Shown: positions 629 through 58,300, numbered from the stretch's first letter. The stretch is 64,000 bases of DNA from Raillietiella orientalis (GCA_036172245.1 JAYWIR010000027.1:310001-374000), one strand, 5' to 3'. Made by a program: numbers and translations. The notes: a model not told the origin generated them from the letters alone.

Positions 629-3600
629 GTAGGATCTCTCCACGCTGAATTCCGAAAAGCACACTCTCCAGGCTCATCCGGGACTCAGCTGTTCTACCGG
701 CGTATTTTAGGCGACTATGAGATGCTTCCGAGGGTAGCGGGAGTCATCGCACACGTGAGAGAGGACACCATTGAACTTAGCGCGAGGGAAGGGATTTTTC
801 CTGGCCCTCCCGTGACAATTCGCTCACGAGTTCCCCTGGGATGATCTCTTCTTTGTCCGTCTTCCGAGGCTCCTACAAGGAGCCATCGGCCATCGACAGG
901 GTAGTTGGGAGCGCGACGGAGGATCCGACGTGGCACCCAAAGGGAGTGGGGCTGAGGGAGCACCCTCTGTTGCCTCCAAAAGCAGTGAAGCACGAGTGTA
1001 AAAACAGCGACAGGACAGCACTGGACCTTTGAAGCACAGCTTTGGAGGTCAGAAGGCAAACTCGAGGGTCGTACCGCTCCCAGGTCTGCTGCTGTGAGAG
1101 CTGCCTAGGGACGAGCCCGCGCGCACACGCGAGAAGCATCCAAAGGGAACGCTTGATCCCTTGGCCTTCCCTCCGAAATACTAGGGAAGAGGAGAGAAAG
1201 GAATGGGACCCATTTGCGATCTGGGAACTGGAAGCAGCAAAAACGGAAAGGCTCGATCCCTTCCTCTCCATCCAACCGTGCGCCGCCCTCAGGGTAAAGC
1301 CGCCGCGACCCACGGCCGGTCAAGGTCGCTTCTACAACCGAAGGTGGCGCTCTGCCCTCTTCCTTCATCCTCATTTAGTGAGGAAGGTCCGCCGAAGGCG
1401 AATCTCCTGGATTTTGCTCGAGATGACCCTCCTGCAGTAACCTCCAACGTCCCCGGACCCAGCTTCCGGAGTCACGCGCTAACAAGGAGGGGAAGGCGCA
1501 ACAACTTCCTCGTCTCCACTTCTACCTCCGGAGAGTTTGACTGGACTGCTTTCCCGAAAATGCCGGACCTCCTGCGTCGCAGAATTAGTGTCGAAAGCTC
1601 GTCCTCCGGGTCGTGTCAGGGCGCGTAGGCTGAAAAGCTCCAGAGTGGAGTCCCGTCCCGGCGTCACTTTCGAGCTTTCCTCCGAGTGCCCGTTTTCCGG
1701 GGAACTTCCGCCTGGGACTCAAGAATGCTCGACCGAAGGTCGAGCATTCTCTTCAAGCGCTCCGTGGTCGTGAGGATCACCATCGGCAACCGGGGACGGC
1801 TCGGGAAAACTTTCTTTGAGCCATCTTCGCGCCGACCAGGACCGTGCCTTCCTTTCCTCCGAAGAACCACGGATAGCTTAAAGCGAATGCTAGACCGTGA
1901 GTCCCGGGGCGGAAGTCTCCTCAGAAACGGGAGCATAGGAGAAAAGCTCGAAGGTGGCGCCGGGAGAGGACTCCCCCTCCCCCCGGAGCTTTTCAGCCTC
2001 CGCGTCTCACTGGAACTTTCTGCTCTCCTTCCCGCTCCGCAGGATGCTCGCGGGAAATGAGGCACCTCCGAACAAAAAGTTATTCATCTGCCTTTGCGTG
2101 ATCACGCCTTTGCATCATCATAGCCAGCTTGTCCTTGCGTCTTTTGCTGACTGCCATTTCTGTTTTCTTTAGTCGCGGTTTTACTAGCACTCTGCTATCC
2201 ATTGCCAAGGAGCGTTCCGAGAGTGTGTCTCCGGGGAGGAAGTGGACTGTCTGCTAGTTTTCTCGGAAGTCTTAATGAATGTCTCCAGCAGAGATTCGGC
2301 CTTCCCTTTTAGAAGGGAGTCCTCCTTGATCTTACATCGTTTTCTCCATAGACGCGAGAGCTACCTAGCTTATCACGAGGAGCCAAACCCTAGATCCCGG
2401 CCCCTTGCGTCCAAACAGGGGAAGATGGCTTGTCAGGGATGCATTCCCGCTGCGGAGCGAGACTCGAGAATCCCAGACAGCGACACAGAGCTCTGGATCC
2501 GAGTATTCAGCAGCAGCAGTGTGCGTTGTCATGCCAACATGAGCGAAGGAAACATAACACCGCAACAATGATGAGTAACAATGAACATGTGAGATTGCAG
2601 CAAGCTGCTCAACAATGCTCAAGAGATTGATATACCAAACAGAAAGGAGGGAAACAGGAAGTGCATTGATCCTGTTCTTGCGGGCTTTCCATCCAGACTG
2701 GCAAGGGTCAGGTATGACTTTCATCTCTTCGAAAGGAACCACTGAAAAACTTCACATGCCCTGGAAATTCCGCTGGAGGACTGATAGATCTATATTGCCA
2801 TCGTTTGCTCTCCCATCGTCTTCGTGTTCTCATATTCGGACTAGTCAAAAATTTCAAAGAGGAGGCTGAAAGCAGAGGCTGTTCTTTTATTGTTCTGCGT
2901 CCGATCTCCCTCTTGCCTCGCTCCAGAGCCACAGCGCTTCCGGAGAGAGCACCGAGGAGATACTGTTCCGTTCTTTCCGTTCTGGATCGCTGGACTTCTT
3001 TCTTTATCTCCGAGCTCACTTACACACTTAGCGTTAATTATGGATTTCGTGGTGGATATAAATTCAGCGTGGTGCTTGGCACTCGCCCCACAGGGACCTC
3101 TTGTTTGCCCTTCTTCCCCCCCTTCTGCCCTCAGTTTTTTTTGTTCGTTCCCATTTTGCTCATGATGACCCCGAGAAACGATGGTGGTCTTGCATCCCTA
3201 CACCACGAGTGTTCTTGATCATCCTTATATCGGGAACCCAGGATGTGTGGTTCCATTCACGTCCTGAGCTCGAAGACCGAAAAAAAAACCGAGACAACCG
3301 ATCAGGTATTCGCAGCACCTCATCTCCTTTCTTCGTTGTGGAGGAGCATGCCGCCATCACCGCCAACCTTCGTGTGGTGGATTCAAGTCCAAGGGGACAG
3401 CGTGCGACGTGTCACGCATACCGGAGTTCGACGGGATCTTCTGTACTATTCGCCCACGGAGTTTCTCATCTAGGAGTGTTCTCTGGAACCTGCAGGAACT
3501 CCAGAACGAGAAGGGAAGAGGAAAGGCTTTGCCTTCACCTACGAGCGAATGCCTACTTCCTCTTTCCCTCCGGTCCCTTCTTCCCTGACTCTTTCCAACA

Positions 3601-4809
3601 GATCTCGAGCTGTCCTGCTTCGCATTGCCAGAGCACGGGATCCCACGTGAACGATAGCAGCACCTTTCCCTCAAAAAGAGGGGGCAGAATTTTTCCGCCT
3701 CGGGGGCTTGGGGCAAGCGTTCTTGTTACTGCGTTCCTCCCATTGCTCGCCAACTCCGCAACAATCATGAGACGATCCTGGTAGTGACTCTGATCTTCCT
3801 CTTCAAGCAGTGGAGAGAATAGCAACTTTGCCGTCGCTAAGCTGCCACTCTGGCAATCCTACCGATCCCCGATAGACGGTGGCAGGGCGACAGCGAGGGG
3901 GTAGACCACAAGGCAGCGATGCCATGAGAAGATCGTCGAGGGGAAACTCACGGAACGTTACCTTCCACCCTTCCATTAGCGAGGTGGGTCTCCCCTCCCG
4001 GGAGGCCACTCGCCCACCAGCCGAACACCAACTGAGATCGGCGAACGGGCATTGCAGCTCCCCGAGGCGTGCAGTCTCCGCCGAGCCTCGAGGAGAAGGA
4101 TCTGCTTAGCCGTCAAGGGAGACAGCGAGATGGAAGAGGGTGACGAAGTCTCATGGTACTGCGTCCCGGAGAGTCCAATTTGGTCCAGAGAACGGCGTCC
4201 GAGAGCGTGACCTTTCTTCCTTCGCTCTATCCCAAGGCCTCCCTCCCCCCACCTCACATACATCTTTACACGTTTGCGCACACATAACGCTCTTCCAGGG
4301 AATGTACAGGAAGCGTACCTATGGGTGTACAAAACGCATGCACATGACATTGCAATGAGTACGCAGGTTGATTGATCTCTCTCGGCAAGCGTGCATTTTT
4401 CCGGGGAGAATTCTTCCCTCTTCCAGGAGTGTGTCCGCGGCAGATTTCAGCAGCGAGTACGATCCGCCTGCCTCAGGGGAGGGGAGCAGCAGAGCTTTTC
4501 CAGGCTAGGAAGCATCTTGGTGGGGATCGTTCTGGGGGTAGCCACTGGACGAAGGGGTGAGAGGGAGGGTGGACACCCCTGCGCGCGCGCGCTCCACCTT
4601 CTGCCTCATCAGGAACCGCGAGTGTGTCCCCACTGGCCCCACTGGCCTCGGAATGGACTCCTAGGGGGCTCTCCTTTCATTACCCTTTCATTCCTCCAAT
4701 CCCGTCAATCCTCCCTTCGGAGGGCCCTTCGAAAGGGCGAACGAGAGCCGCCTTTTCCCCCCGGACGAGGATGGGAATGGGCTCACTTTTCCGTCTCCCC
4801 CGTTTACAG

Positions 4810-5050
4810 GACGCTCTCGTACGACCCCTTCAAGCACAGCATGAGCCATGCCCCTGCTCCAGGTTCACGGTGGTGAGGAGGGAGAGGGTGATCGTTCCCC
4901 TCCCCAGTAGAAACTCCCACAGTTGGAAAAGGTGAAAAGGGGTCAGCTTTCAGTTGGGATATCCCGGAATGTGCTGTGGCGACCGGCGACCCCGCCGCTA
5001 AGAGGCACCGTCGATTCTTCAGCCGAGAGTTTCCACGAGCGGGTTATAAC
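4810..5050 (+). CDS. Possible small internal exons (4810-4872, 4954-5050) of the TRMT9B-like gene
   Basis: tttacag| acceptor and |gtgag donor, then ctttcag| acceptor and |gtgtga donor. Phases are compatible with the exon starting at 5164 (RTLSYDPFKHSM.../WDIPECAV...). Confidence 0.3.
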
Positions 5051-5163
5051 GTGTGAGGGAAGGCTGCTCCTGCAGCTCCCGAGGACTCTCCCGGTCGGAA
5101 AAATGGGTGTAGCTTACCCCACTTTTAAGATCGGGGATCGCCTCTGCTTTCCCATCCAGATAG

Positions 5164-6606
5164 CCTTCCTCGAGAGAACGACTGGTGAAAGCAAGCGGAA
5201 CACGCGGCGCCTGCTTGGAAGGGAGGAAGGGGGAGATGACCTCGGCGAAGAAGGGAAGCCACTCCTCGACCTTTTGTTGTTCCGTAGCCGACAAGCAGAG
5301 GTTCTCCGAGAAGGCGCTGCTCGTGGTGAAGGAGGAGCTGTCAGTGTCGGCGGATGAGCTCAGAACCGGCGGTGGTGTCGGCGGCTCGGCCGGCGTCCCG
5401 GCGAAGGATAGGGCGGCCGGTTCCCTCCGAGGCTGCGCCTGCGACTTTCCCAAATCCAGGAGCTTGGAAGTGATGGGCGTCTCGGACGCTTCCGACGAGG
5501 TCGCCGCCTTCCACTCTGACAACGACGGTAGCGGCGGCGGAGGCACTCCGAGCTCGCCTTCTCCCGGGCAGCTCTTCGGCGAGTGCAGGGCTGCCACGGA
5601 AGCCACAGCCTCCCTGGAGCGGTTCGCGGCCAAGCTGCTCAAGGACGCTGTCCTGGCTGCCCTACGCGAGGTCAGCGGAGGGGGACCGTCCACTAAGACT
5701 CTGTTTGGGGAGCGCAACTCCAAGATGAGAGCCCACAGGAAGACTTCCAGCACCTGCAGCCTGATGAGCATCTCCTCCAGCGGCTCGTCCACCAAACCCA
5801 AGACGGACTCGTTCGATTCCTCGATCTCCTGGACGACCACGCTCTCCAGTCATCGAGGTTCCTCCTCCTCCCAGCCTCTGTCTTCCTACTCCCGGGGGAG
5901 CACCTACTCCAGTATTTCCCTGTCGGACATCGAGGAAAAAACGAGATCCACAGGGAGGACAGGGTCTAAGAGCAGCCCTCCGGTCCTCGCGAGGGCGAAG
6001 AGCTTCGCAGAGACGCGAGGTCGCTTCCCGCGCCGCCTCTCCCGCCCGCATCTGGAAAAGATACGACTTTTCCATCTCAGAAGGCCACCGAGGGCGCAGC
6101 AGCAGCAGCAGCAGCAGCAAACTAAGTCCTCGACCCTCGTTCTCAGCGGCGTCAACATGGCGGCTTGCAGACAGCACCTCAAGATCCTTCCCGGAGTTCT
6201 CATCTGTAGGCGGGCGGAATCCCGGAAGAGGGACGGCATCTTCCGGCACTTCCGATCGCGCAGAGACAGCGGTGTCCTGGGCCAGCAGGCATCCTACGAG
6301 GCGCGCTCCCTGAGGAGCTTCTCTTCTTCGAGCGGAAGGAAGTCCAAGGGTTCGACCTCAGACCTCGCCAGCACCTCCGGAGCGGAAAGAACCACTTCCG
6401 ACGGAAGCGAGGGAGGCCTTCCCCGAAGAGCTCCAGTCCCCACGGTTGCTTTTGCGAAGCGCCACAAATACTACCACTTCTTCAGGGGAGGGGAGCTGGA
6501 CGGACTCATCGAAGAGCACGTGAAGAACCTGCACATCCTGTCGTCGTACGGAGACCGCCGTAGCTGGTACGTCATCGTCGAGAAGGTGAGGGTGTGGACC
6601 ATCTAG
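5164..6606 (+). CDS. TRMT9B: Terminal exon of a TRMT9B/KIAA1456-like (Trm9-family) tRNA methyltransferase-like protein; the SAM-binding domain is presumably upstream of the window
   Basis: Long open frame ending KYYHFFRGGELDGLIEEHVKNLHILSSYGDRRSWYVIVEKVRVWTI*, matching the Trm9/ALKBH8/TRMT9B C-terminal motif YYHxFxxGEL...SWxVIxEK. It is preceded by a long Ser-rich region. Acceptor cccatccagatag| at 5163. Confidence 0.8.
   Translation, partial: PSSRERLVKASGTRGACLEGRKGEMTSAKKGSHSSTFCCSVADKQRFSEKALLVVKEELSVSADELRTGGGVGGSAGVPAKDRAAGSLRGCACDFPKSRSLEVMGVSDASDEVAAFHSDNDGSGGGGTPSSPSPGQLFGECRAATEATASLERFAAKLLKDAVLAALREVSGGGPSTKTLFGERNSKMRAHRKTSSTCSLMSISSSGSSTKPKTDSFDSSISWTTTLSSHRGSSSSQPLSSYSRGSTYSSISLSDIEEKTRSTGRTGSKSSPPVLARAKSFAETRGRFPRRLSRPHLEKIRLFHLRRPPRAQQQQQQQQTKSSTLVLSGVNMAACRQHLKILPGVLICRRAESRKRDGIFRHFRSRRDSGVLGQQASYEARSLRSFSSSSGRKSKGSTSDLASTSGAERTTSDGSEGGLPRRAPVPTVAFAKRHKYYHFFRGGELDGLIEEHVKNLHILSSYGDRRSWYVIVEKVRVWTI
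6097..6120 (+). repeat. (CAG)7CAA coding microsatellite (polyQ8)
   Basis: Read directly; in frame in the TRMT9B-like exon. Confidence 0.95.
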
Positions 6607-9999: not shown

Positions 10000-11870
10000 A
10001 AACTGCTTCATCAGAAACACGAAAAGACAAAAACAGAAAGCGAAAAAAGTTCTGTGGTGACATCAGCAAGAGCCTCTGAAGATCATGTATGTCTTGTTTA
10101 ATCGATATCTAAATCCCTCTAACCAGTGCGGGCTGACTCTCATGGATCCAGTCTCTAGCTCTAACGGCATTGCGAGCTCTGCAGCATCATGGTACACATC
10201 GGAATCCCCGACCGCCGTCTTCGATATAGCACTGTAAGGAGGTGTAAACCGGGGTGTCGGAATGCCAATCTGGCTGGGAAGCTACGGGTAGATGGCCTCG
10301 TTGACAGCAGACAGTTACATTGCTTGCATGCCCATCATCTCTCGTCATATCCTAGCAGGCATCGCTGACTTCATTCCAAGATCAATCTCCAGGACAGCAT
10401 GGTTCCAGGGTCGGCTTCAAGAGGGCGAAGCGATCCAAGGCTGCTGATCGGAGCGAATTCTAACTCGGGAGGCTGCGATCCTGTGAGACGAAGAACAGAG
10501 ATTATATTGTCTCTTCGTGGCTTCTTTCCATGGCTGCATCTCGTTCATACATTGGCTCCTCGGACATTGAGGTCTGAGAAGAACTAGTGCCGACCGATGC
10601 GAACATCGACGGAAGTTCCGTGGAAGCAGTTTCCATTGCTTTACACTCTTAGGGCAGGAAAAGATGCACAAAACAGGGGAGCGAAGATGGAAAAGTCCCT
10701 TTGACCGTATATAAAAGCTTCTGTTCACTCAATAAACACATCTGGTTCGCATGCGTTCTTGGAATTTTCAACTCTCGCAGAATACTGTCGTTCCTGGGAT
10801 TTCAGCTGACGAGCTGAACGAGCTGACGGCCATCGCGCGAGTGATCAAGTTTTTTGAGAGTTCAAGAGAGAGCTGTTAGTTCCAGTATTTCCAGAAGTGG
10901 AGGAGTTTTTTTGAAAAACCCTGCGGATGGCGACGAAGAAGAGACGTGTACACCACAGATGGATGAGGGAATGTAGGAGCATTCATCTCATCTCCCATCG
11001 AAGGGACAAATTCAGCAAGACGATCGACCATGCCGGGAGCATCTAGACAGTAAGAAGAGAGTCGTCCAGGGTAAAGACCTGGTAGAGACCTTTGAGAAAA
11101 GCTAACCCAGAGTTATGATTGAAGATGCAACTCCGAATAAGCGCATGAAGATCAGGCACAAGGAAGCATAGCTTTACTCCATGGAAAGGCATTCGGGCCA
11201 AGGGAAGACCATATCTTGTGTGATACAGCATCCTTCGTCGGCAGACCACCTGCCCAACGGTGACACTCAACGGTTCTTTGATTTAATCCTGCCGCGTGGC
11301 TCCATGTACTACACGTACGGGAAGCTCCCACCAGGTGCGCCGTCAAACTCATCTGCAGGAGGTGCCTGGTATAGGAAAAGACTTCCTCAGTTACATTCCC
11401 AACCACTGCTTCTCGAACGAAGAGCTGATAATCGAGAGGCACAACGAGCTGGTGGCCCGAATCAAAAGCGCTGCGCATGAGAACTGGAAGCTGATGACCT
11501 CCTCCAATTCACCCATCCTGGGGCAAATTCGGAACTGTGACTGAATTTGGAGCTACAGGATGAAGATATGGTGCCCATCCTAGTCTTCTTCTGAAGACTC
11601 CTAGAACAGTCATCTTCCGGAGCACTCGAGGGACAAGTGCAGAGATCGATTTGCTCTTCACTTTACAGGAGTGGCAAATGGATTCCAGAGGACATCAGAA
11701 CGGTCTCCGTCATGAGATTCTTAGAATCGTGGAAATCCTGCAAACGACGTCATCATTCGATGAGCAGCTGATGGGAAAACATCAAGAACAAAACTGTTCC
11801 TGCACGTGCTGCTCTAGGGGGACCTACTTTAGACACAGGTTGGGTCACAGTCCGAGATGAAGGAACCCTG
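10000..11870 (+). mobile_element. Heavily decayed RLE-type non-LTR retrotransposon (Utopia/NeSL-like)
   Basis: Fragments in the expected order across frameshifts: RT-upstream PDRRLRY (~10206), QGKTISCVIQHPSS..RF, zinc-knuckle remnant NHC...IIERHNELVARIK (11400-11466), LESWK (LGSWD-like), CSRGTYFRH (SRDIYxEH-like). Confidence 0.7.
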
Positions 11871-19479: not shown

Positions 19480-20960
19480 TACACCTGAGGGGAAAGCGCC
19501 TGGAAGCGACGCGCTTTCTCCTCGGCCTGTCCTCGTATCCCGGATCGTGAAACGTGCCAATGCAGTTCGGCATCACGGCTCTGGGATACCTCAAGGTCCG
19601 AGGAAAGCCGCCAAGAAGGAAACTCCTCCCATTCTTCGCGGGTGGCCGTGCTGCAGGAGCTACGGCAGTCGAGCCACCTGGGGCAGCCAGAGGCATCCCT
19701 CTTTGGGAAGATCATCCGTGGTGGGATACTGAAGCTGTACTCAATGGACCCAGGAATCGGGGACTGACGCAGGGCGCTCAGTCGTCAAGGAAGGATGAGC
19801 ACCTTCAGCTGCCGACGGCAGCAAAGTGCTTTGAAAGCCTTGAGGGACTTTCGAGTAACAGGTGGAAGAACGCACTCGCCCCTGCTCCAGGTCACCGCGG
19901 AACAGAGCCGCCCTCGTGGAGCTCCAGCTTTTTTTCACACACTCTTTCACTCAAAGCTCGGGTTCATCTGCGGATGCGGAGGTGTGAGGGCTCACCACCG
20001 CGTCTTTCGACTGGAGATGCGGCAGCGACTGCTCCACTCCCTTCTACAACAACCGGTCGCTGCAGGACGTCATTGTGCGGCCCACCACGAGTGCGTGGGC
20101 GCAAAGAACTTCCCTGGTCACAGCACTGCTTCCCTCAGGGAGGAGCATCTGGGCAGTAACCAGCCGGACAAATGGGAAGTCTGTTGCGAAATCGATGAAA
20201 GGGCGAAGGTCACGGATGCTGCGACCCCAAGTGCCCCATCGAAGGGACTATTGCTCTGGGATGAGCTGCTGGGAATCCCTCAGGAAGACCTCGAGTGCCC
20301 CAGAGCTGAAGAACAATCAAGTCCTCCCCCTGAATTGATAGGAGTCGGTACTTCTACTGTTGCACTGGGGTCTCCCGTTCAACGCCCGCCGGCTCCACCG
20401 GACCCGGGGGGTTGTGAACCCGGACTGTTGCAGGTGCGGAGAGCGGGAATCCCAGCTCCCGCACCTGCTCGTAGACTGTGTTGCCCTCCGGCCCCTGCGG
20501 TTGCGTTACGCAACGGCCCATGGTGTACCGACGGACAATCCCAGGGACGTGATGAAGCACCTCTCCGTGCGCGATGCCTTTCGCCAGCAGCTCTTTGCTG
20601 CCTACGTGGAATTGTGGCGGCCTGGAGCTACCCGAGAGGAGGACGGCGCGATAGGGACGCCATCTGCTTCGTCCTGCGCTTCCTGCGGACGGCAGCAAGA
20701 TGACCCCATCTGGGACCCACACTCGGACGGAACTTGCCGGCATCCTGGAAAGGATGCAGAGGACGCCCTCCAGCGGACCGTGATCCCCTCCCGGGTCCTC
20801 CAGAGTGTTTTTTTTTTTTTTTATTGATTTTTATTTTATTTTTATTTTCGCTTGCTCCTCCGCTGCCGAGGCGAACCTCGCCGGTTTGCGTGCAGCTTCC
20901 GAGCATTTGGGGACGATGTAGGGCCGACGGCCCTACACATGAATGTCTGTTATAGACGCT
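19480..20960 (+). mobile_element. L1/Tx1-clade LINE remnant (internally deleted ORF2 plus 3' UTR)
   Basis: GKAPGSD (KAPGPDG-like) near 19490; zf-RVT-like LHWGLPFNARRLH...DCCRCGERESQLPHLLVDC (20360-20485); T-rich 3' UTR and a hairpin at 20917-20937. Confidence 0.7.
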
Positions 20961-33520: not shown

Positions 33521-36500
33521 CCCTCGAGTTCTTCTACCTATGGCAAGGTGACCAAAAACTCGACATCACCTGACCCAAGAGAACGAAGAGGAACACTTGT
33601 AGGCGAAGAGACTCCTAGAGGAAGAGGAATGGTAGGCAGCAGGATGCTCATATCTTCCTCCTTTCCGATGAGGCCAAAGAAAGGGAACAGGATGGTGGGC
33701 ACCTCTCAGTGCCTGTTGGCTGCTTGCCACCCGAGACCGACGGTCTCGCCCCTCATCTGCACCATCTTTCTCTCTACCCTCAGGCCAGCTCTTACTCTTC
33801 CGATCTTCACAGTCCGCGATTCTCATAGGTCATCCTCCCAGGAGATCAGCCGGTATCTGGGAGGCCTTGTTTCGAAGCTGCGATTGTTCCTCCACTCATC
33901 ACGCTTATCAGTGCTCAAAATCCTTGATCATCCACTTTCAACAAGCGGAGAATCCTTATCCACTTGAGGGATCCTCCTTGTTTCCAGGGAACAAGGGCCC
34001 ATATGAGACGCCAACAGGCTTGGCTTGATGGCAGCGTGTGGTGAGATAGGACAAGGCTGGCATGCTTCATGCTGATGCAAGCTGCCACCTACGCCTCTGA
34101 TCCACAAGTGGGGAAGAGGTCAAGGGCCTCCTATGACAGATCCCCCATTCTCTCACTCGCGGACACGAATACCGCGCTCCCAGCTGCCAGCATGCGAGAG
34201 ACACCATGATCCGTGTCCAAGTGGACAAGCAGAGGAGGAGCAAAGTCATGACGTAAGTCATCTCAAACCTTCAACCTCTTCCCTCTAATTTGACCCCACT
34301 TGGCATCTATGCAAACCGCGTAGACTTAGGTACGGATGGTGCAGGTTCTCGTTTTAGATCGATCTACTATACAGGCGTGCGCGTCTCCCACGGCTGGAGA
34401 TACTAACAGTCCACTCAGGCAGTCCTAAACCCGACGTCCTCAACGTATCCCAGCATGGTGATGCATATTGCGATTTCGGCAGATCACCATGGGTCGCGAC
34501 AACGCGAAGCTGTTTGGGAATTGCTTGACGAAACGGTTCCGGCGGTGGAACCAGGAGGACGGGATTATTTGACCTTGCACCAAAGGGGAGGGATTTCCTT
34601 CCATCAGAAGGGAAGAGGAAGGGAGAAGGACAATGAGGAGGAGGAGGAAGTAAAAGAGGATTCTTTCCATCTGAAGGCCTACTCGCACACGATTTTTAAG
34701 CTCGATTTACTCTACGACCACTCATGAGAGAAGAGGCAACCCCCTCTGTGATGCTTTCGTATCCACTCCTTTCATCTTATTCGCGGCTGGTTTTACCATA
34801 TCGTACGCCGTTGGAAAGGCAGTTGCGGATCCTTTCGAGTGAGGGAGCAATGCCTTCCTGCCATTCTCTCGAGGAGTCCGCTCACAGGCAGCTTTCCTCC
34901 TCCCTACGTAAATTTTCGCCTTCCTCGTTCCCCGTCGGATTCCCCGTCTGGAGCCAATAATTGAGGCCATAATGTATCGTCGTCTCGCATCCGGCAAACG
35001 ACACCAGGATAGGAGGCTGAGGACGTCATATCCCAATCGAAGGGACCGACGACTCACCTCCGTTTGCGAGCGCGTCCGCATTTGATCCTCATGCTGACTG
35101 ATCCACAATTCGTGCCACGACGGCGAGCTCTCACCAGTGATTTGAATTACCCATGTCAGCTTCGTTTAGTAGAATTGCGGGAACTGGTTGTCAAGGCATT
35201 TCATTGATCCAGGCTTCCTTCGGCTACGTGTGAGAGTAACTTGAGTCATCCTTGCATACCGAGAGAAAAATTCTCTCGCCTGATTCATCACTGCTTTTTT
35301 TTTTTTTTTAATGCGATTTCGTGAGCACCTATAACACGGAGAACCAACGGCTTCATTTTCAATCCAAAGGCACAGCTGGTATCCATCGAGAAATATCAGA
35401 AAAACGCCATCTCACTATGATGCTGGGCGGTTGCGCCATCCCAACACCGCGGAACCAGTGCCACCACCCCACTGCCTCGAAGTACGGTGCGCACCCTGAA
35501 AGTTCCTTCCACGGGCGTAGGAGATGTCGATGGAAGCCACGAGGTCCTGACCACCTGGCTTCCCTAGATCCAGCATGAAGCTGGCACGTGGGCATCCGAA
35601 TGTCCCGGCCATGAGGGGCTTAAGAACACCCCGGACTCCCGTCTTTCCTGAGGTAAGAGTCAGCCTCCCTGACAACAGGCTTGGCTGCATCTCGTAGCAC
35701 CTCCATTCCAATCGAACACCAAGGAAACAACGAAGGCCTTCCACTTTGGAAGGATCGAACACTTTGGGGCCAGTTTTGTTCTCGTGATAGCTGCCCCCCG
35801 CCAACCACGATGAGACGCAGTAGGAGGTGACATCTCACATCAAGTGAATGGGGACCGCTCGTCGGCCACTTTTTTTTTTTTTTCCGGTGATTTTCCGAGG
35901 TGCTCGGAGGAGACTGCGGACTTGGAGGTTATCGGGCCGAGTTACCTGACTGCATCTCGGTGCATCCATCCAAGAGCATGGTGAGGGAGGAGGAGACTCG
36001 AGCATGAGGAGAGTTTCCAGGGTCTCGACGAGACAAGGCGCATGTCCTGAGGGAGAACAGCGTAAAAAAAGGAAAAGATCCGCTTCGATCTTTCTTTGTT
36101 CGTAGAACCGTTGATTTTTTTTTTTGTTGTTGTTCCTGGTTCAGATTCGGCTCGCCGTCATCTCTTAGCAGAATTCGTAGCAGGTCGTCTGCCTCTTCGC
36201 CTTCCTTTTTCTTCTTCTTTCCAAATTGGCAGCCCTCACACGCCTTGCATGCTACGAGCAGCACCAACGGTCCTCCCCTGTCCTGCTTACCGGATTATGG
36301 AATTCCGGCCCTGATTGCTCTTGCTGATGGTGTCTCATCAGCTCGCTGCCGGAGCGGATGCTGACTCTTCGCTGTATTTCTCCAAAGCTGCACCCATCCT
36401 TCCCGTCACGCATTTCCTCTCTTGCATTGGAGGCTTTTGGATTGCACTTTCACTCCTCCCTATCTTTTCCATCTTCTCGCCCAACCTTTGGATTCGATCC

Positions 36501-39066: not shown

Positions 39067-39427
39067 CTAAATAGGTTGTTTCCACCAATCCCGTAAACAA
39101 ATGAGGCTACCTGATATCGAATTCCGAGGGTTCAGAATTTCAGAACTTTTGGATGTGATCATCACCTCTCAAAGTTCCCGTCAGCACTTTTGTAAGAACC
39201 ACTTCCTTAAAAGGATAAAGATAATCGGTAATTCCACATCGTTGATGAAGCTGTTTGCCATCACCGCTGCTAGCAGTTGCTAGGAATCAATAGCGTACTT
39301 GGATTTTTTTCATATCTTCATATATGAAAAAAGCGCTATCAAGGTGATGGCAGCTTTTCACATCTTTAACTAGAAACTTCCTTACATGCGTGAGATGTCC
39401 GATCGATTTCATTTCCGGAAGAACAGA

Positions 39428-41041
39428 TTTTTTATTTAGTAAGAAATCTTACATACATACAAATAACAAAGATGGCTCTGCAACATCTTCCGTTCTACGA
39501 CTTAGAATTCTGGACTCGGCAGATGACTTCTCAGGTCTTTATTGCTTTAAAAGATACAGGGTTCCTCCTTTGGAGGGAACTCGTATACAAAATGGATGGA
39601 AACAAGACTGATATTTCTGATTCACAGTATCCATACCATCATTCGCGAGTTGAATGTTTCGGGATGCTGGATCTTTTTTGACGGGGACGTCACTCGTGGC
39701 TGTGGAATGTTTTCGTCCGTTGATCCTAGGGGCGCACCAGATGTAGCAATTGAGAAGATCTCTTCAAAGAAGCTGGAGTAGGGGTTCTGCTATTCCACAG
39801 TGGCTCTTCCATTTTCATACGGTCGCAGAAGACAAACAGGAAGCGGCACGGGTTGTGGAGGTTCTCACTTTTTAAGGGGGTTCACTAGTGCGTGGGAGGT
39901 CAAATTCTACAGGGCGATCATCACTAGCTGCATCCTCGTACCAGCTAATGTTGTCATCTTCAAGGCCTGCTCCTCGGCATGCGGTTCAGTGTTATCGGCT
40001 ACGCTGCAAGATGTTCTGGAACATAGTGAGGAAACGGAACTGCGAACCATATACATAAGCGGTACAATTGTAGCGCTGAGGGTGGGGTTGGGTTTAGGGC
40101 TAGCCGAGAGGGGAGTTGAGGTTTGTCAGGGAGGGAAATGCATCCAGAGCCTTGGTGGATGGTTGGTACTCTATGTGTTTCACGTGGATGTCTCTGGATG
40201 CTCTTATGACGGCCGCGATCATCCTGACCCTGAGGGCTTTTGCGTGTTAATCGGGTATGCCAAGTATGGCAAGGACTTTCAGCGTTCCTTGGGTCTCAGG
40301 CTCCCAGTATGCCGATGACGAATGCATCCACGTAGACCTTCCTACCGGAGTTGCGGAAATACTGGGCAATCTGAGCAAACTTTTTGACCTTTTCTGCCCG
40401 CGCAACTCTAAAGGAATCTCGACGGTTCTCAAAGGGGATGACATCATCGATAATGGCAGCCTGGAAGTCGTCATAGATAACAAGGTCGGGTCGAAATGAG
40501 GAGTTTGAATCGCCTACTTGTTGGTCGGTTTGAAGCCTGGGCCAGTAAGGACGCTAGGCTTTGGCAATTCCTTAACGACTAAGTTGTGGCGCCCAGTTAT
40601 GGAACTGCCAAGGAGGTGTTGGCAGTGGGCGAGTACGTGGCGGAGAGATCCCATGGGCGAGATGCATCTTCTGCATCTCTCAAAGAAGCCGGGGCGCTTC
40701 ACTTTTCCATTGAACGGCCGTAAGTTCAGCCGCGCTCAGTGGATGAATCTCCAATCTGAGAAACGGAGAAACTCATATCTCTGCAGAAAGTTGTTGGAGG
40801 TAGGATGCAGGGGGATACAGTCCATGATTCGACCCTGATCAGACTTGTTGAGCAGAGTAGATGTTCTGCCCACCCACTCCATCGAGCTAATCGTTTTGGC
40901 CACTTGCCAATGGAGGTAGCAGGTGATCCGTTTTCCAGGAATTGAAATGTCAATGGAGTCATCCTGGACGGAACAGGACAGCGGAAGCCTTTTGGAGGCT
41001 TGCCGCAATGCTGACCAGAAGCTCCTTGGGTCGCCAGAGGT
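39428..41041 (-). mobile_element. 5'-truncated Utopia/NeSL-type RLE non-LTR retrotransposon
   Basis: SGDPRSFWSALRQASKRL, DQGR...HPTSNNFL...RFSDWRFIH*ARLNL, zinc knuckle CRRC...HVLAHC...ITGRHN, and RLE motifs RPDLVI...IIDDVIPFENR...AR.EK...VDAFVIGILGA. Ends in AATAAAAAA directly followed by TCTGTTCTT. Confidence 0.9.
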
Positions 41042-41081
41042 CTGCACTTTGATCTTAGCCAAAAAAAGAACGAGATACGAT
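41042..41081 (-). pseudogene. U2: U2 snRNA 5' fragment (nt 1 to ~37)
   Basis: ATCGTATCTCGTTCTTTTTTTGGCTAAGATCAAAGTGCAG versus the recalled U2 start ATCGCTTCTCGGCCTTTTGGCTAAGATCAAAGTGTAG: 5 substitutions plus a T-run expansion, with a 20-nt exact core. Confidence 0.85.
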
Positions 41082-43122
41082 TCCCGAAAGAAAAACAGTC
41101 ACATATGTAGAAGCTTGCTTTTCAAGATCCATGCTTCAGAGGGAACCTGTTTTTTCTGAAAATAAACAGCTCAAGAGTAAAGGGATAAAGATGCAGTCTT
41201 CGTCTCGATATAACGTACAAAAGTCCTGAGGTTCTGCGGGAGCTACAAACTATGTGGATAATTTGTCTTTTGTTCTTGTCACTGCTCTCACTGGAATAAA
41301 TAGTTGCAGAAAACCAGTTTTCGGTGCAAATTTTGATATCCTTCACTAGTTGTTAAATTAATTGCTAGAAAGCTGCGCTGTGCATTATGGAAAATGTTTA
41401 TTTAGTTCGCTAGAGACTAGGACCATTCTCTGAAAGATTTCTTCCAATTCCTTGCACAGTGCTCATATAGATCCTCCTACACTACTCCTGATACGGAAGA
41501 CACATGAGTTGCGTTGGCTTCTGCAGCCTGAAATGCAATCTCATCCTGTTCTCTAGAAAGCAATAAGCATTATTCTACATCTAAAGGGAACCTATGATTT
41601 AAACAGCATTGGTTCCCTTTCCTTAGGATAAACTTATTTCGAAAACAAGGACTCTTGAGTATCAAATGAACTCTCTTGTATTCTCTGCTTCTTTATCTGA
41701 AGTCTTTAACAGCAGTTTGCGTAGCTTAATTCATGCTTTGCTGAATAATGTATTTCATCACTGCTTATATCTACTTGAGAACAAGAGACTGATAGAAATA
41801 GAAGCTGACGAAAGCAACAGAATAGCAACGAAAAGCCGGAATTCAGCTTTCATGTGCTCTCTTCGTGTCGGTATATCTGCAGTACGGTTGCCACTTCAAA
41901 GAATCTGCTGATGCTTTTCCTCAAATACTATCCAGAATTCCAGTGGTACTACTCAGTTTGAAATATATGTTTAAAAAAGAGTAATCAATGCACTGGTTGC
42001 GAAATATCCAGAAATGCTCGAAATCAACACAGGTGTCAGCCATGTAGTCTGCTGACGTTTCCTCTCCGAGAGGATCCTGGATGAAAAGGGATAGGCAGTG
42101 ACTAGGAGCAGGAAGGGTGTTTTTTGGGAGTGTCTTCTGTTCTTTTCGTTGTGGAACCAGGGAATTCTGAAGGCTGGTTTATCTGCAGCGTGCATTGCCC
42201 GTGGCATCTCCTAAGGCTGTAAATCGCCTCTGCATGGCGTATCTCTTTTAATGCATGGGAAAAGATGCACTGGGGAAACGAAGAAAGTACTAGAAAACCC
42301 ACTAACGGTGTATTTCTGTTGTATTTTTCTAATGGCTGCAAGTTTTCCCATACTCGTTGAAGAAACTTAAGGGTGCGCCCCCGACCCCTCGTCGCATAGA
42401 GCGTGGATATGTCGCGGGTGTCCATGATTTGGGGACAGTGGTTTTTTTTTCGTTCTTGCTCTTTTGCTTCCATTTTTTTTTGCTTCTTTCTTCCCTCCCC
42501 CTCCCCTCGTCCCCACCCTCTAACAGTTTCCATGAATAGAGAATAATACTCCAAAGCAAACTTCTTGAGGAGAGTAAGGATATTCCTCTCCACATGAGGG
42601 GAAGTTAACGTGAAAGGGCATAACAAGAGTAATTATGATGCGGGAAATTTGATGAAAGAAAATGAGAGAATTTTCAATGATAGTTCAGTATTACAAAATT
42701 AAGGCACATTCAGTTAAAAGCAGTCGGACGTGTCGAGGACTTCGTTTCGCGCGCCTTTGCACTAACCAGGTTAAGGCAAAAATAACAAAATACATTTCCA
42801 CGTACATTGGCTATTTATTGGTAAATTAAAGGTAGGTGGTGTGTGCTTTTGTGGTTTGAGTGCAATAGACAAGCCATGCATTTTTATGTTCGAACGTATC
42901 CACTGGGACAACGCTGTATAAGAGGGTTCCACGTATGTTTTTTTGCTCACCTGTGAAAATAGTGCATTTATTTTTCTATAATATTTACACCAAAAATTAT
43001 GGTATCATACGTTTAATATGCACAATTTTAGGGAATTATCATCGCCAACAATGAACATTGAATGGTGTATTCATTCAGTTAATGCAATTGCATGAAGCAA
43101 ACCAGATCATTTTCATGGAAGA

Positions 43123-44823
43123 ATGATGTCCCCAACTTCAAAACAGGCAGAAAAGGAAATTTGGAAATTTACAAAATGTTTTCTATTAAAATTTGTTCAA
43201 ACTATTGTTATGTCTCGTTCCGGAATCAAGACAAAAACAAAATTAAATAGGATGGAAACTCGTGACTGGGTAATATGTATTCTTGTATATCTTATTGTTA
43301 GTTAGTTATAATAGTAAGTTGGATTATTCAGCATTTTGTTATTTTTGTCTTAACCTTGCATATCAGTCCATACTCTGGATAGCATTCATTAATACTCCCA
43401 CATTATCATTCCTTGCAGCCTGAAGTAATGAAAATTCAAATCAATAGTTATGATCCATTTAGTGTTTATGAACCTTTTTTGATGTGAAGAGTTTAAAGAT
43501 GTAAAAATTTTATATACATTAAAAGTATCAGATGAAGCCTGGCTAAAATGCAAATTTTGACTGCAGATTGAAAAATAATTGATCTTGTGATTATTGTGAT
43601 ATATTTTTCAAGTACTGCTGTTGTTTGTAGTTTTCTCTGGTGATTGAGGATGCAGCTAATGTCAGTGAAGTTATGAAGAAAATGATCAATTCCCAGACAT
43701 CTGTTGTTTCATCACCTGTGTGTGTAGAAATTTCTCTAAAAACAGTTGATCATAAATTCATGATTTTGGAAACATGGTGGCTATCTATCAATGAGCCACA
43801 CCATTCAAAAATGGGGGACTCATTTTTAGTATATGCAGCTCTAGGACAGCTGTTAAAATCCTTGATTACTGTGAGTCGTGTCACTCCAGCATATCAGTTG
43901 TCTCGTCATCAAACCAAAGATACATTTGTTATTTGTTATAGAGTGTACTTAGGTGAGCCAGAACTTCATGGCTTAGGTATGTACAATGCTTCTTCACTGC
44001 TTGTTTAAATGGAACACCTAGGTGAGGGATACCTTCAGAACCGTATTGGTGAGATAGGTACTCATTTAGGTACCTATTCCTTAAATGTAGCTTATAGGAC
44101 AAATCACAATACGCCTACTCTTTTGAACCATTCCAATGTTCCACCACCAGTCAATGTTTGCTGCTCAGGTTTGAGTCTCCAAGCTTCTCCAGAGAAATTT
44201 GATGCTGATTTGACTCAAAAATCCCAATTGGAACTAGTTGCACATGAAAGGTAGCTTGTACTTTTCTGTTGGTTTTGTCTGATTTCATCCTTTGTTATTT
44301 GGTTTTCCTAAGCAGGGATGGTGATGAGCTGGATTTCTATGAGTTACCATGTGCATTTTCCTGTGATATTTCTCCTTGTGCATTGTTTCAAATACCTTCT
44401 ACTGGTTTTGATCAATTTTTATTGGAATGGGAAAAAAAATGTTTGCTGAAAGCAGAACAGGAATCAGCTTCTTCTCCCTTATGCTCTTTTGATGTGCCCT
44501 GCCTAGCAAAGTATCCTTGTCCGAGTTGGAAATCCTGTAGTTCAATGAGCCAGGATCCTGTAATTCAAAACCTAGTGAGTTTAGAATTAAATGTAGGGTC
44601 AATACCATTTGACAACCAGGAGATACCATTTTCAAATCAAGAATACAACTCTTTTCTGGGCGATTTCTTCTTTAATTCAAGTCCTTCTTTTCTCCATGCA
44701 TCCACACTGGACTCTGAAGTACACAAAGTGGAACAGCAGATGGCTACATTTTGCATGGTCAAGGGAGAATTCAATGACTTGGTTCAGTCCATCATGGGAA
44801 ATAATGAAGAAACTCTCCATTGA
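43123..44823 (+). CDS. ATG13: Autophagy-related protein 13; join(43123-43269, 43631-43976, 44022-44250, 44316-44823), 409 aa
   Basis: HORMA-domain motifs DW|FSLVIED, CVEISLKT, LLKSLITVSRVTPAYQLSRHQ, YRVYLGE, GLGEG, VAYRTN, and a C-terminal EFNDLVQSI resembling EFDAFVETL. Three GT-AG introns (361, 45, 65 bp) keep the frame; 1230 nt in total. Confidence 0.95.
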
Positions 44824-54632: not shown

Positions 54633-55347
54633 TCAAAGAGAATCCACTATATTGCACATCAATCTATCAAGGGAATAACATGAATCAGATAATTTTTCTT
54701 TAGGTTTGGCATCTGAATTTGAAAGTGTTTCCATAGGGATGGTCAGTTTTGTGTCTAAGCTACACTCATCTGGTAAACTGGCCAAAGCTTGCTGCAAAAT
54801 TTCTTGGACCAAATCCAAATGCTGGGTAAATTTCTCTTGAATTTCCAACCGCTGATGTTTCTGTGCTTCCAGCATGAAACGCAAAGACTCTCTCGCTTGA
54901 TGAGGCCGAAATTCATTTATCAGATGATGCATATGGATAAATAACAAACTAATATCCTCCAACTTCTCTTCTCTTTTGTGGGAATCCGGTGCTTTGATTA
55001 ATATATCAAGCAGATCCAAAAAATTCATTAGCACAGAATAATTTAGCTTTTTCAATTCTTTCTTGTGATCAAAATTCTGTGGATACAATCTTCGGATATT
55101 CTAGTTTAAAAAAAAAAACAAAAAAATCAAATAAACTTTGTTTAAATTTCTGTTTTAAAACCTGGCTTTCCAATGGTCTGATTATAACATCATCAACATG
55201 AAATGGAACACCAAACATAGTATATGTATCATGAAGTGCCTCTGGTGGTTTAGGAACACGATCTTTCCTAACATTTTCGTCTGTATACACTTTGATATAG
55301 TGCATTGGTGGTAAAGGCAAAGAACTAACTTGGGTGGTTTCTGCCAT
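54633..55347 (-). CDS. MED7: Mediator subunit 7; join(55347-55162, 55100-54633), 217 aa
   Basis: [83 protein letters not shown]. One 61-bp GT-AG phase-0 intron. An acceptor (tttcag) 3 nt before the ATG suggests a 5' UTR intron. Confidence 0.98.
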
Positions 55348-58300
55348 TATCTGAAATACAATTCTAAATTCATAATGTGGAAAACTGCATTTAGAAAATA
55401 TATTTGGTATATATGCTACACTGTGTTTTCAGAATATCTAGAAATTTCACTTTTGTGCATTCTGAAACAAATTATTCGGAATTATATAAAACTATCTGAT
55501 TTCAAGCTACAAGCCCAAAATGATGCTCTTGAAATTCTACGTAAGTTTCACATTCTTAACTTTCATTCACGCCAATTCGATCCATCATAGTTGACCCATT
55601 TCACATTACGTTATTTTAACACAAATGTAACCACATTGGTATCACCACACTCATCCATTAACGACAGATTGGAAGTGCATGGTGAAAATCAATTCATTCT
55701 GCAATTTCTATATGACGGGCGTACCACCGATCCATGGCAAACCGAGATTCCTCGTGAACATCTTACCGTAATATCCAAACTTTTATATTCCAATCAAACA
55801 GGAAAAACTCTTCATGTTAAGCTATGCTTGCAGCATGACACAATGGAAACACACAATCACGATATGGATGTGTGACAGTTTTCCGATAAAAAGAAACATG
55901 CATCTGAGGCCACAGAAACGAGCAGCCACAACAGCACTGTCACTGATCAATTTTGAGAAGTGTTACAAATTTAAAGCAACCCTGCGTTGCAGCACTCACA
56001 TGTTAACTAGCCCACGGCACCGTTCACTCAAGACTGTAACTGTAGTAGGATTACCAAGTTTTTTTAATCATCTGGAGACCTAAATTGGATTAGATTTAGA
56101 TTTAAATTCAATCTAGATTCTTACCTAAGAGACTAACAATACGAGTAGGAAAATTAAACAGGAAAACACAGATTTAAAAAAAAATTAGAAAGAAAATTCT
56201 GGAATGTTCTTTAAAAGGGAAACAAATTTCCTTTTCTTTTCAAAAGAATCAAGTTTACTCTTTTCCCATCTCACGGAGTTTTACATCCGAATACTCCTTT
56301 TTTGATTAGCACCATCTATGGAATATATCTTATTTATTATTGAGGAAATTAAAATATTTAAAAAATATAGTTCTTGAAGATCTTTTAGAGTGAGAAATTC
56401 CTAAGCATAAAACTTTTCAGTCATCAAACTCTCGTAACAAGATGGATCGAGACCCGAACAATCGAATCTAAAACAATTTTAAGAAGACTTTAGCTAGATT
56501 CTTCAACTTTGAGAGCTCAGAATAATAGTCTCACAAATTATGATAAAAACCACTTGAATTGGATTTGAAAAACTTTGATATGAATGACGATAATGTCGAT
56601 CGATTTTGACAAAAATGATTACCGTGACTGATCAAAACATTTTTTGGAATCTACATATCATCTTGAGCACAATAAAAATCCATAGTTTCGAAGAAGTATT
56701 AAACACATAGAGTGCAGGGAACAGATTTATTTCAGTAGACTGTGCCATTTTTTGTATTCGGGAGGTTAGATGATTTCCATGAGTAGATTATGATTTCCAA
56801 ATGAAAGTCAAATTCATTAACCAGAGAAAGATATATTGGATCTCGTCTCGAGAGTTAGAAATGTGAATAGGAATATTGAGAACCTGCAAGCAATCTTAAT
56901 AAACGAATATCAATTGACTCCAGATTAGACAGAAATCGAAAATCTATCATGCTTTGAGATTCTTTTGTTGTAAAGTTTAAACCATGTTTAGGAACTGGTA
57001 CAAGCCAAGTGTATCGCTCCCACTAGAAATTCTGGAATCCTAGATGTTGTTTCTTCCTTTATGGTTTCCTAAGTGAAAGATGTGCAGGTTGATTCTCATT
57101 TTGAAAAGCCCAGAAAAATGCGTAAAGTCTGAACCTTTCTGGATTTCTTAATCCTTTATATTGAATACGAACTTTTATTCATGATTCTGCATCTCTTTGA
57201 TTCGTAGAGAAACCGTGTTATCTTCTGTATGCATGATATTACCCTTTCAAAAGTTATAAGCTTATGAGTTTGCTCAGTTTTAAACCTTTTTCCCTTTGGG
57301 CTGTTCTGCGTCACTCAGTCACTTGAACGTTAAAAAGAGTGTTTACTGCTTTCTGATGAACTAAAAACAAAATGAAGATATTGCTTTTGAATAGAAAAAA
57401 ACTGTTTTTGATCATTTTTTTTTTCATCAAGTGCTTCTTTCTTTACTATTGTCGGATTATATCTCTTTACAATAAATCTTGACATGAATTATTTCTATCA
57501 CTAGGTCAACACAGACTAATGATTAATTCATATTTCATTCTTTTAAATTTCAACACTTTAGTTGAGGCTAAATTCAAAATACTGGCTGCATCAACAGCAT
57601 ATTTTCATTATCCTTTATTTTAAGTGTTTTGTAAATGAAACAAAAACAATTTCTAGTTCAAAATTTTTCCTTTTTAACTAAAAGGAAAAAAGTGTCTCTC
57701 ACTGAGGGCATTTTTTACTTATAAATGTCAATGATAAATTAAAACCAAATTTTTTGTTTTAGTGTGCTTTTCTTATATTTGTTGAAAATTGAATAACTTT
57801 AAAGCAAATCCAATCAAGTATCAGCCCATGTTTAACACTAGATCAAACTAAAAGCTCTTTTCTGCATGGAAAATGAATTATTCTGAAAATTCACCATTGG
57901 AATTCAAATTCATTCTGAAAAGAAATATTTTTCTATAAAATCAAGTTTACTCCTGAGTTATGAAATTCAGCCTACAGAGCAAGATCTTTTGAATATGCAG
58001 TGTTCAGCCTTTGTTTGCATAATAGTCATTTTTAACTTCTATAGTGTTCTTCAGAAATTTTAATCTCCAAGTTTCCACTGCCCTCGAACGATGGAGTACG
58101 AAGGTTTTTGAATTTATGCTAAGCCTAGCCAGAAATGTCTCTTCCCTTCTGACTATTCCCTTAATAAAAACAATATGAATAAACCAATGATTCATGATGA
58201 TATCGATCACTCATCGGTCACGGTATTTTTTTTCTGCAGCCAAGGATCGAACGAGCACTCAAGATTTAATCGAAAATGTCTGCAACAGCAAGGACGTTGT

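Follow-up and report, generated by a model that had tools for sequence, protein, structure and literature searches.

A U2 snRNA-headed fragment of a Utopia-like retrotransposon outside a U2 gene in Raillietiella orientalis

Anatomy of the locus

We analysed a stretch of 64 000 nucleotides (nt) of DNA from Raillietiella orientalis (GCA_036172245.1, JAYWIR010000027.1:310001-374000), hereafter the window, in which a decayed retrotransposon fragment lies directly behind a short sequence derived from U2 small nuclear RNA (snRNA). Read along the minus strand, the locus comprises one copy of a putative target-site duplication, the U2-derived head, the retrotransposon body (41044-39428; 1.65 kb together with the head), a 9-nt motif corresponding to the insertion site of Utopia elements and, partly overlapping this motif, the second copy of the putative duplication (table 1).

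Protein homology identifies the body as the C-terminal approximately 1.6 kb of a retrotransposon without long terminal repeats (non-LTR) that is of the restriction-like-endonuclease (RLE) type. Indeed, it retains remnants of a CCHC finger and of an RLE domain, and a HMMER search against 1.84 billion representative proteins returned 520 relatives at E<=1e-3 (182 at E<=1e-10; best 5.7e-29). Full-length relatives are 1000-1600 amino acids (aa) long and carry N-terminal C2H2 fingers, a reverse transcriptase (RT; RVT_1), a CCHC finger and an RLE, followed by the ending …IYxEHxTGxRQY; the RT is absent from the truncated copy. Translation from 41044 gives 176 residues, an in-frame TGA (40738-40736) being read as X, which hold FSDWRFIHxARLN and the CCHC finger (CRRC…H…C) before the frame closes at 40516-40514. 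The RLE fragment is 46% identical to a 1110-aa protein with an RT domain, its sole match in a word-indexed protein search, and the C-terminal remnant resembles the family ending, with tblastn alignments stopping at 40172. In the same type of search, the 176-aa fragment found nothing among longer proteins at E<=1e-5, and Pfam returned no family at E<=1 for the four fragments of open reading frame (ORF).

The closest relatives share approximately 45% identity at most on fragments longer than 32 residues, and 54% on the 28-residue C-terminal piece. Those with named hosts come from ticks, spiders, aphids, springtails, ants, bees, crayfish and turtles, which overlaps with the list of Utopia hosts (PMC4640811). 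One relative (P0026, the single one used as a query) matched solved R2 proteins at E 1.8e-62, chiefly over the RT, and from this match the family is described as R2-like, though not close. The body has accumulated three stops and two frameshifts in approximately 870 nt, for a rough divergence estimate of approximately 3-9%, and a self-similarity search of the window found no second DNA copy of the element.

Affiliation to Utopia is suggested by the domain remnants, the 3′-end signature and the 3′ junction. In Utopia, a zinc finger is followed by a C-terminal RLE of the PD..D/ExK type, and the CCHC and RPD…D…K remnants reproduce this layout. The tail of the element reads AATAAAAAA, and the copy terminates in CTAAATAAAAAA, which directly adjoins TCTGTTCTT; the junction (AAATAAAAAA-TCTGTTCTT) falls at 39428/39427, and the 9-mer (39427-39419) equals U2 nt 39-47. 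This is the published target, as the U2 sequence downstream of Utopia begins at nt 39 with TCTGTTCTT… (Kojima & Jurka 2015, PMC4640811). Moreover, in the rows of S1 Fig consulted, the sequences of animal Utopia families finish with AATAAA and a further 0-10 nt, placed directly before TCTGTTCTT (PMC4640811), and the copy displays, on comparison by eye with these rows, the 3′-end signature of animal families, namely a hairpin, an A-rich stretch and AATAAA plus 0-10 nt.

The 3′ untranslated region (UTR) also contains an internal module that resembles, by eye, the 3′ end of the tick element Utopia-1_IS (…GGAAACCCTGTATCT…GCATCAATAAAAAA) in the same rows of S1 Fig (PMC4640811). The module may represent a former 3′ end behind which the element gained a 3′ (read-through) extension, or just a UTR element that has been conserved. 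The predicted fold of this module is not better than those of shuffled sequences (z -0.68), and the same holds for the RNA folds of the head and of pieces of the 3′ UTR.

Table 1. Components of the U2-headed fragment and its immediate flanks, ordered along the minus strand.
Feature	Position	Strand	Remarks
Upstream copy of putative target-site duplication, CTGTTTTTCTTTCGGGA	41082..41098	minus	12/14 plus a 3-nt gap against the downstream copy
U2 snRNA-derived head, ATCGTATCTCGTTCTTTTTTTGGCTAAGATCAAAGTGCAG	41042..41081	minus	U2 nt 1-36, 31/36 identical
ORF remnant: post-RT linker, FxDWRFIHxARLN motif, CCHC zinc finger	40517..41044	minus	profile homology from codon 41044-41042
RLE remnant (…RPDLVIYDD…IIDDV…AEKVKK…)	40296..40553	minus	separate frame, TGA at end
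C-terminal remnant, …TLKVLAILGIPD / …RDIHVKHIEY	40166..40295	minus	third frame, one stop
3′ UTR, ~740 nt	39428..40165	minus	ends in AAATAAAAAA (39437-39428)
Internal 3′ UTR module: hairpin TTCCCTCC-AAA-GGAGGAA, then CCCTGTATCT…GCAATAAAG (AATAAAG)	39535..39580	minus	~110 nt before the real end
3′ flank, TCTGTTCTTCCGGAA	39413..39427	minus	first 9 nt = U2 nt 39-47; from C onward = downstream repeat copy

Origin of the head

The head was aligned with a U2 reference, the commonest version of nt 1-38 (24/43) among 43 real U2 genes from stored loci. These genes had been collected with a 29-nt U2 motif that retrieved 44 loci, and the three examined were full-length U2 (139-173 bits in Rfam). Direct alignment identifies the head as U2-derived: it differs from U2 nt 1-36 by five substitutions (5/36; positions 5-6, 12-13 and 34) and two indels, namely three extra T in a T run and one extra A, and reaches a local score of 21.0, the runner-up over both strands of the whole window being 14.0 and the best alignments in 10 shuffled windows scoring 13.0-15.5. 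A 13-mer of the head, TGGCTAAGATCAA, matches U2 exactly and occurs once in the window.

The signal is weaker in Rfam. No U2 was found in the window at the gathering score, nor at E<=10 on a stretch of 2.8 kb or of 81 nt; once the stretch was trimmed to 41044-41083, with a 3′-cut match permitted, U2 (RF00004) ranked first with 11.8 bits over model positions 1-34 (E 0.52 over 4227 families, for a gathering score of 46 bits). By the measures of a U2 gene, the head falls below the gathering score and is neither full length nor intact in its stems. Since the pairing of stem I is disrupted, it is a dead fragment and not a functional U2.

A reading without any U2 would make the head element coding sequence, or a random flank similar to U2 by coincidence, and the whole a plain 5′-truncated insertion at a TCTGTTCTT site. 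The low Rfam score would suit it, as would the in-frame translation of the head (SYL…IKVQTS), which loosely recalls the motif [AS][YF]LSG…F[RK]..[ST][NS] of the relatives, both lying 22 residues from a conserved W; several tblastn alignments also enter the head, to 41086 and in one case to 41254. However, the alignment of a profile built on 87 relatives begins with the codon at 41044, and adding the translated head raises its score by 0.3 bit only (41.3-41.4 versus 41.0); with a profile of 323 positions for the part upstream of this point in the relatives, nothing was obtained at E<=100 in the six frames of 41030-43500. On the strength of these two results, a coding origin of the head was rejected and the copy is taken to be truncated at 41044 ±3. 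The alignment to 41254 was likewise discarded, as it spans three stops and is without support from the upstream-region profile. Added to the alignment score, to the exact 13-mer and to the position of U2 nt 1, which falls exactly on the boundary of the flanking repeat (41082), these results leave the reading without U2 close to refuted.

The truncation point of the element coincides with the end of U2 similarity at nt 36. The breakpoint in U2 (nt 36 ±3) is thereby no more than 2 nt away from the canonical Utopia site, which follows nt 38.

The U2 genes from which the reference was drawn have a peculiarity of their own. The 44 loci with intact U2 genes (L081-L124) lie on contigs filed under bacterial metagenome-assembled genomes, with labels that include Anaerolineae, Dehalococcoidia, Poribacteria and Metamycoplasmataceae. 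Many of these genes stand in tandem arrays with a period of approximately 1.4-2.1 kb, and some adjoin genes for U1 or tRNA. Evidently, eukaryotic contigs were assigned to bacterial genomes during binning.

Flanking repeat and extent of U2 similarity

On the minus strand, the sequence preceding the upstream repeat copy reads …ATATGTGA. The two copies, CTGTTTTTCTTTCGGGA (41098-41082) and CTGTTCTTCCGGAA (39426-39413), are anchored at both junctions without slack, and the downstream copy begins at the position of the nick. When random pairs from the window were aligned with the same anchoring, 27 of 1500 scored as high, so that a target-site duplication bracketing head and body is suggested by the repeat, although not strongly. 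No copy of the repeat is found between head and body.

Beyond the 9-mer, the sequence continues with CCGGAA (39418-39413) and then an unrelated flank. With the stretch placed flush at the junction, Rfam detected no U2 at E<=10 downstream, and an alignment of U2 nt 48-190 from 23 references with the next 228 nt scored 18.0, a value reached by 55 of 300 random stretches. A candidate U2 remnant 50 nt downstream (score 18.5, 5/400 with an unfair control) disappeared under this fair null. As a positive control, the U2 that follows a U2-targeting element at another locus (L026, described below) scores 108 bits in Rfam. Upstream of the head, no element homology was found, and the 419 nt compared with stored U2 5′ flanks showed nothing beyond a match of 22 nt (E 0.06); these flanks come from other organisms, which makes the comparison a weak test of promoter similarity.

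These results agree with the anatomy put forward in an original prediction made from the sequence. The 40-mer that it ascribed to U2 is indeed U2-derived, faintly in Rfam and clearly by direct alignment; the body does come from the 3′ portion of an RLE retrotransposon, as it had proposed; and the U2 target position that it gave is the published one. Its 12/14 match between the flanks with a T-run expansion is present, as 12/14 plus a 3-nt gap that random pairs equal at the rate given above; U2 similarity does stop after the 9-mer; and the locus, said to lie outside a U2 gene, contains no intact or recognizable one. The conditions that it had named as fatal to itself were for the most part not borne out, since the remainder of U2 is not detected downstream and the upstream flank does not resemble the 5′ flanks of U2 genes from other organisms. 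In strictly specific Utopia families, the U2 gene extends beyond the first few bases of the 3′ flank, which is not the case here; its absence is permitted in weakly specific families (PMC4640811).

The same observations bear on a second explanation, in which a full U2 gene, or a pseudogene of full length, received the element and later lost its part past nt 47 by deletion or decay. Such an insertion would be the default behaviour of Utopia, as copies with intact 3′ ends in Phytophthora and Nasonia are nearly all followed by U2 (PMC4640811), and a head spanning U2 from nt 1 to the canonical site is what it would leave. Yet neither the covariance model nor the 23-reference alignment recovers any downstream U2, while the head is still 31/36 identical and the 9-mer intact. 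An extra deletion starting exactly 9 nt past the junction would thus be required, the flank repeat would be left unexplained and, subject to the weakness of that test, the upstream flank has no similarity to U2 5′ flanks. We regard this explanation as very improbable.

Proposed joint insertion of head and body

We infer that the head and the body arrived together, as a single cDNA, at a half-site resembling U2 outside a U2 gene, to which we assign a probability of about 0.5. This value comes from a rough weighing that starts from a prior of approximately 1:4 against insertion as a unit and takes its likelihoods from the repeat, from the 9-mer and from the absence of the upstream half-site. Joint insertion makes use of every observed feature. 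In particular, it accounts for the absence of a repeat copy between head and body, where a duplication-making insertion into a U2 fragment would be expected to leave one, and for U2 stopping after 9 nt.

In the read-through version of this scenario, the source would be a U2 gene holding a 5′-truncated Utopia-like copy at its canonical 38/39 site. The U2 promoter would start a transcript that reads through into the element body, and the resulting chimeric RNA would be mobilized through the Utopia 3′ end. It would then reach a non-U2 sequence that happened to carry the downstream target half, TCTGTTCTT, where the bottom strand would be nicked just ahead of the 9-mer and target-primed reverse transcription would follow; a top-strand cut approximately 14-16 bp further on would produce the CTGTTCTTCCGGAA duplication around head and body. 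The outcome would be U2 nt 1-36 joined to the last approximately 1.6 kb of a Utopia-like element, now a dead fossil.

Two routes to the chimeric template can be envisaged. The first, a transcript that began at the U2 promoter and read through a gene in which a truncated Utopia was resident, is a tentative proposal that we would not call probable in its own right; the second, a jump of the RT from a broken element RNA onto U2 snRNA, seems unlikely. Read-through is the more likely of the two. Indeed, a breakpoint at nt 36 ±3, near the site at nt 38, fits read-through from a copy resident in U2, whereas a random jump does not predict it. Other breakpoints or the whole snRNA would be more natural products of a jump, and snRNA chimeras made by L1 reportedly contain, as a rule, the whole snRNA. 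As the source of a head with five substitutions, moreover, a dead and disrupted U2 gene is a better fit than a functional U2 snRNA.

The original prediction had already proposed integration as one unit. The direct repeat that brackets head and body speaks for this part of the prediction, but one imperfect repeat (p ~0.02) does not establish it, and the prediction had left aside the possibility that the U2 fragment was there first.

Several points weigh against joint insertion. The head-body chimera occurs as a single copy in the window, and the repeat is short, T-rich and matches at 12/14 with a gap (p ~0.02). The head, with its 5/36 substitutions and two indels, is somewhat more decayed than the estimate for the body, which an older, pre-existing head would fit better. 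For the read-through template, we know of no snRNA promoter that efficiently drives kilobase-long transcripts. Recognizable duplications are rare at the ectopic junctions of crocodilian Utopia copies and absent in arthropod families (PMC4640811), and the upstream half-site GTAGTA, which is retained in most of the ectopic targets published (PMC4640811), is missing from the presumed pre-insertion site. Finally, none of the approximately 33 published ectopic crocodilian copies has been shown to carry a co-inserted head, whereas a pre-existing head is proven in one (PMC4640811).

Published insertions and a possible pre-existing U2 fragment

Crocodilian Utopia copies are known outside U2 genes, at short target-like motifs among which TCTGTTCTT is named as a junction motif (PMC4640811). 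Like the crocodilian family Utopia-1_AMi, the copy described here is of the RLE type, with a C-terminal zinc finger and RLE, and is a 5′-truncated 3′ fragment such as those of 1.2-1.6 kb in that family (PMC4640811). In both, AATAAA and a few nt are followed by TCTG…/TCTGTTCTT at non-U2 loci, with occasional duplications anchored at the nick (PMC4640811). Such duplications measure 20 bp for reptile families in U2 genes, and one of 18 bp, TCAGACTTAACTGATTGA, is found at a crocodilian ectopic insertion (S4 Fig, PMC4640811); the geometry, with the duplication starting at the nick, is common to these cases and to the present one. The R. orientalis copy differs from Utopia-1_AMi in having U2 nt 1-36 inside the putative duplication, and its host is not a crocodilian, the MED7 of the window being far from vertebrate MED7.

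Diverged U2-like sequence does, however, occur at the 5′ end of the truncated copy in 3 of the approximately 33 'non-U2' crocodilian insertions (S4 Fig, PMC4640811), and these cases give substance to a third explanation. An ordinary 5′-truncated Utopia-like copy would have inserted, without duplication, between nt 38 and 39 of a short U2 pseudogene fragment already present (nt 1 to ~47), such as a 3′-truncated U2 retropseudogene or another U2 remnant. The head would then never have been part of an element RNA, and the flank repeat would be due to chance or would partly be the pseudogene's own target-site duplication. We hold this, the main rival of joint insertion, to be a serious minority possibility.

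The precedent is direct. In a copy shared by crocodile and gharial, a 5′-truncated Utopia adjoins U2-like …GGCTCAGATCAAGTGTAGTA, and the empty site in alligator consists of that fragment followed by TCTCTACC… (S4 Fig, PMC4640811); as the empty site already contains the U2-like fragment, the fragment predates the insertion (PMC4640811). The present locus shares with this case a U2-like 5′ fragment reaching …GTGTAGTA, a truncated Utopia and a TCT… flank that soon loses U2 similarity (PMC4640811), but differs in the direct repeat that brackets head and body. A second published copy lies in decayed U2-like sequence on both sides (S4 Fig, PMC4640811). In a further, ambiguous case, ATCGCTTCCCAGCCTACTGAAGGCTCAG adjoins Utopia 3509 and is mostly absent from the empty site in sea turtle (S4 Fig, PMC4640811); the U2-like part of this insertion might itself be a co-inserted head, a point that the text of the paper does not take up. 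More generally, the Results and Discussion of the Utopia paper do not mention co-inserted U2 heads (PMC4640811), and the exact motifs of the U2 head are absent from the text of S4 Fig, the heads there being diverged and U2-like (PMC4640811).

Other considerations also favour a fragment that was already in place. An endonuclease specific for U2 would be far better served by a complete 18-nt U2 target than by a half-site of 9 nt, and the head, to judge from its substitutions and indels, may predate the body. Tailless, 3′-truncated snRNA retropseudogenes with flanking duplications are known in mammals (PMC4494074). On the other hand, U2 would have to stop approximately 9 nt past the insertion site, and none of the longer remainder that should be detectable behind a head of 86% identity was found. 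The CTGTT…CTT of the repeat is downstream U2 sequence, which would have no reason to recur before U2 nt 1 (27/1500). Nor is there element homology or, in the test made on foreign U2 genes, U2 promoter similarity upstream.

Loci related to the element were also inspected for U2. In six metagenome loci covering the C-terminal part (L001, L002, L004, L005, L013 and L021), neither Rfam at E<=0.1 nor motif searches detected U2. The closest relative locus at the DNA level (L002:904-1189; 51% protein identity to P0026) ends in …AATAAAAAAGATTAAATCT / …GCAATAAAAAAGATTAAATCT at the end of its contig, which has the form of a Utopia-like 3′ junction with 3 nt of flank, too short to interpret. A further metagenome contig, L026, has a clean U2 junction, but its element (1740-5960) is not of the RLE type; it is a Keno-like long interspersed element (LINE) of the apurinic/apyrimidinic endonuclease (APE) type, with CCHC knuckles in ORF1 and a 1183-aa ORF2 comprising an N-terminal endonuclease and an RT. 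Its tail, …GAAAGAAAAAAA, adjoins TCTGTTCTTATCAGTTTAATATCTGATA… (U2 from nt 39, 108 bits in Rfam) in the junction …AAAAAAA-TCTGTTCTTATCAG…, and a U5 gene lies 600 nt further on; L026 is a textbook insertion into a U2 gene.

Relation to known snRNA-headed retroposons

Comparable units have been described. SINEU are U1- or U2-headed short interspersed elements (SINEs) of crocodilians (Kojima 2015, PMC4494074). Like the present copy, they have a U2-derived 5′ end on a retroposed unit, and the origins discussed for them are template switching and upstream promoters (PMC4494074). They differ in being short, multi-copy and polyA-tailed, with Tx1 APE-type partners and a Mariner target (PMC4494074), whereas a single 1.65-kb copy with ORF remnants is found here. 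The R. orientalis unit is further set apart from SINEU by a tail of the RLE type and by a U2 part that stops at the target site of the element itself.

The chimeras of snRNA and LINE generated through L1 (Buzdin 2002 and Garcia-Perez 2007, cited in PMC4494074) also join an snRNA to the 3′ part of a 5′-truncated LINE in the same orientation. In these chimeras, the whole unit lies within one duplication, which may have its counterpart here in the repeat of 12/14 plus a gap (27/1500). They are APE-type products, mostly with U6, unlike the RLE-type unit described here, which contains U2 nt 1-36 only and has its breakpoint at the target site of the element. Ectopic Utopia copies (PMC4640811), SINEU and template-switch chimeras of snRNA and LINE (PMC4494074) are thus already known; among the publications retrieved on U2 snRNA/non-LTR template-switch chimeras, none describes a U2-headed RLE element in its title or abstract. 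If head and body were inserted as a unit, the locus would represent a new combination of known kinds, and if the fragment pre-existed, it would reflect ordinary and already published Utopia behaviour.

The model for read-through from U2 is provided by R2, which is co-transcribed with 28S rRNA (Eickbush & Eickbush 2010, cited in PMC4494074). R2 is an RLE element without a promoter of its own that is transcribed from its host gene, so that its RNA starts with upstream target sequence (cited in PMC4494074). By analogy, Utopia might be co-transcribed with U2, with the difference that R2 uses RNA polymerase I and 28S and processes the co-transcript.

The way in which a target-specific element without a promoter comes to be transcribed from the small RNA gene in which it lives is understood for R2, a resident of rDNA, but not for Utopia and Keno, which reside in U2. 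If the head does lie inside a target-site duplication, the locus would be a natural record of a template RNA beginning at the U2 start site. Were read-through its origin, it would be the first physical trace of co-transcription of Utopia with U2, comparable to that of R2 with 28S; capped, U2-headed, non-autonomous RNAs could then be mobilized in trans, and might form the starting point of a SINE-like lineage driven by a polymerase II snRNA promoter on an RLE element. A head carried inside the duplication would also connect the biology of Utopia with the way in which retroposons headed by snRNA, SINEU among them, arose. If, conversely, the head pre-existed, the value of the observation would be for annotation only, in that any label of the head as a U2 gene or pseudogene ought to mention the element.

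Other features of the window

Remnants of retrotransposons occur elsewhere in the window. A second, more decayed RLE-type fragment (11073-11559, plus strand; CCHC/RLE region) was detected by 62 tblastn alignments from 150 relatives (best E 3.7e-07). This fragment is not similar in DNA sequence to the copy at 39.4-41.1 kb, and neither a U2-like head nor a clear TCTGTTCTT junction was seen in it. An RT piece at 34474-34587 (plus strand) matches relatives of the element at E 1.7e-05, as does, over a short length, a zinc-binding piece at 20372-20479 (plus strand) that lies in an ORF at 20342-20827 with a Pfam zf-RVT match under the cut-off (E 9.5e-04). Both are probably remnants of other non-LTR retrotransposons.

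The G+C content is 52-62% in the first 36 kb of the window and falls to 30-48% in the last 28 kb. The minus strand encodes, at 54633-55428, two exons of the Mediator subunit 7 gene MED7 (E 6.3e-33 and 2.4e-06 for Pfam Med7), which indicates that the window is eukaryotic nuclear DNA.

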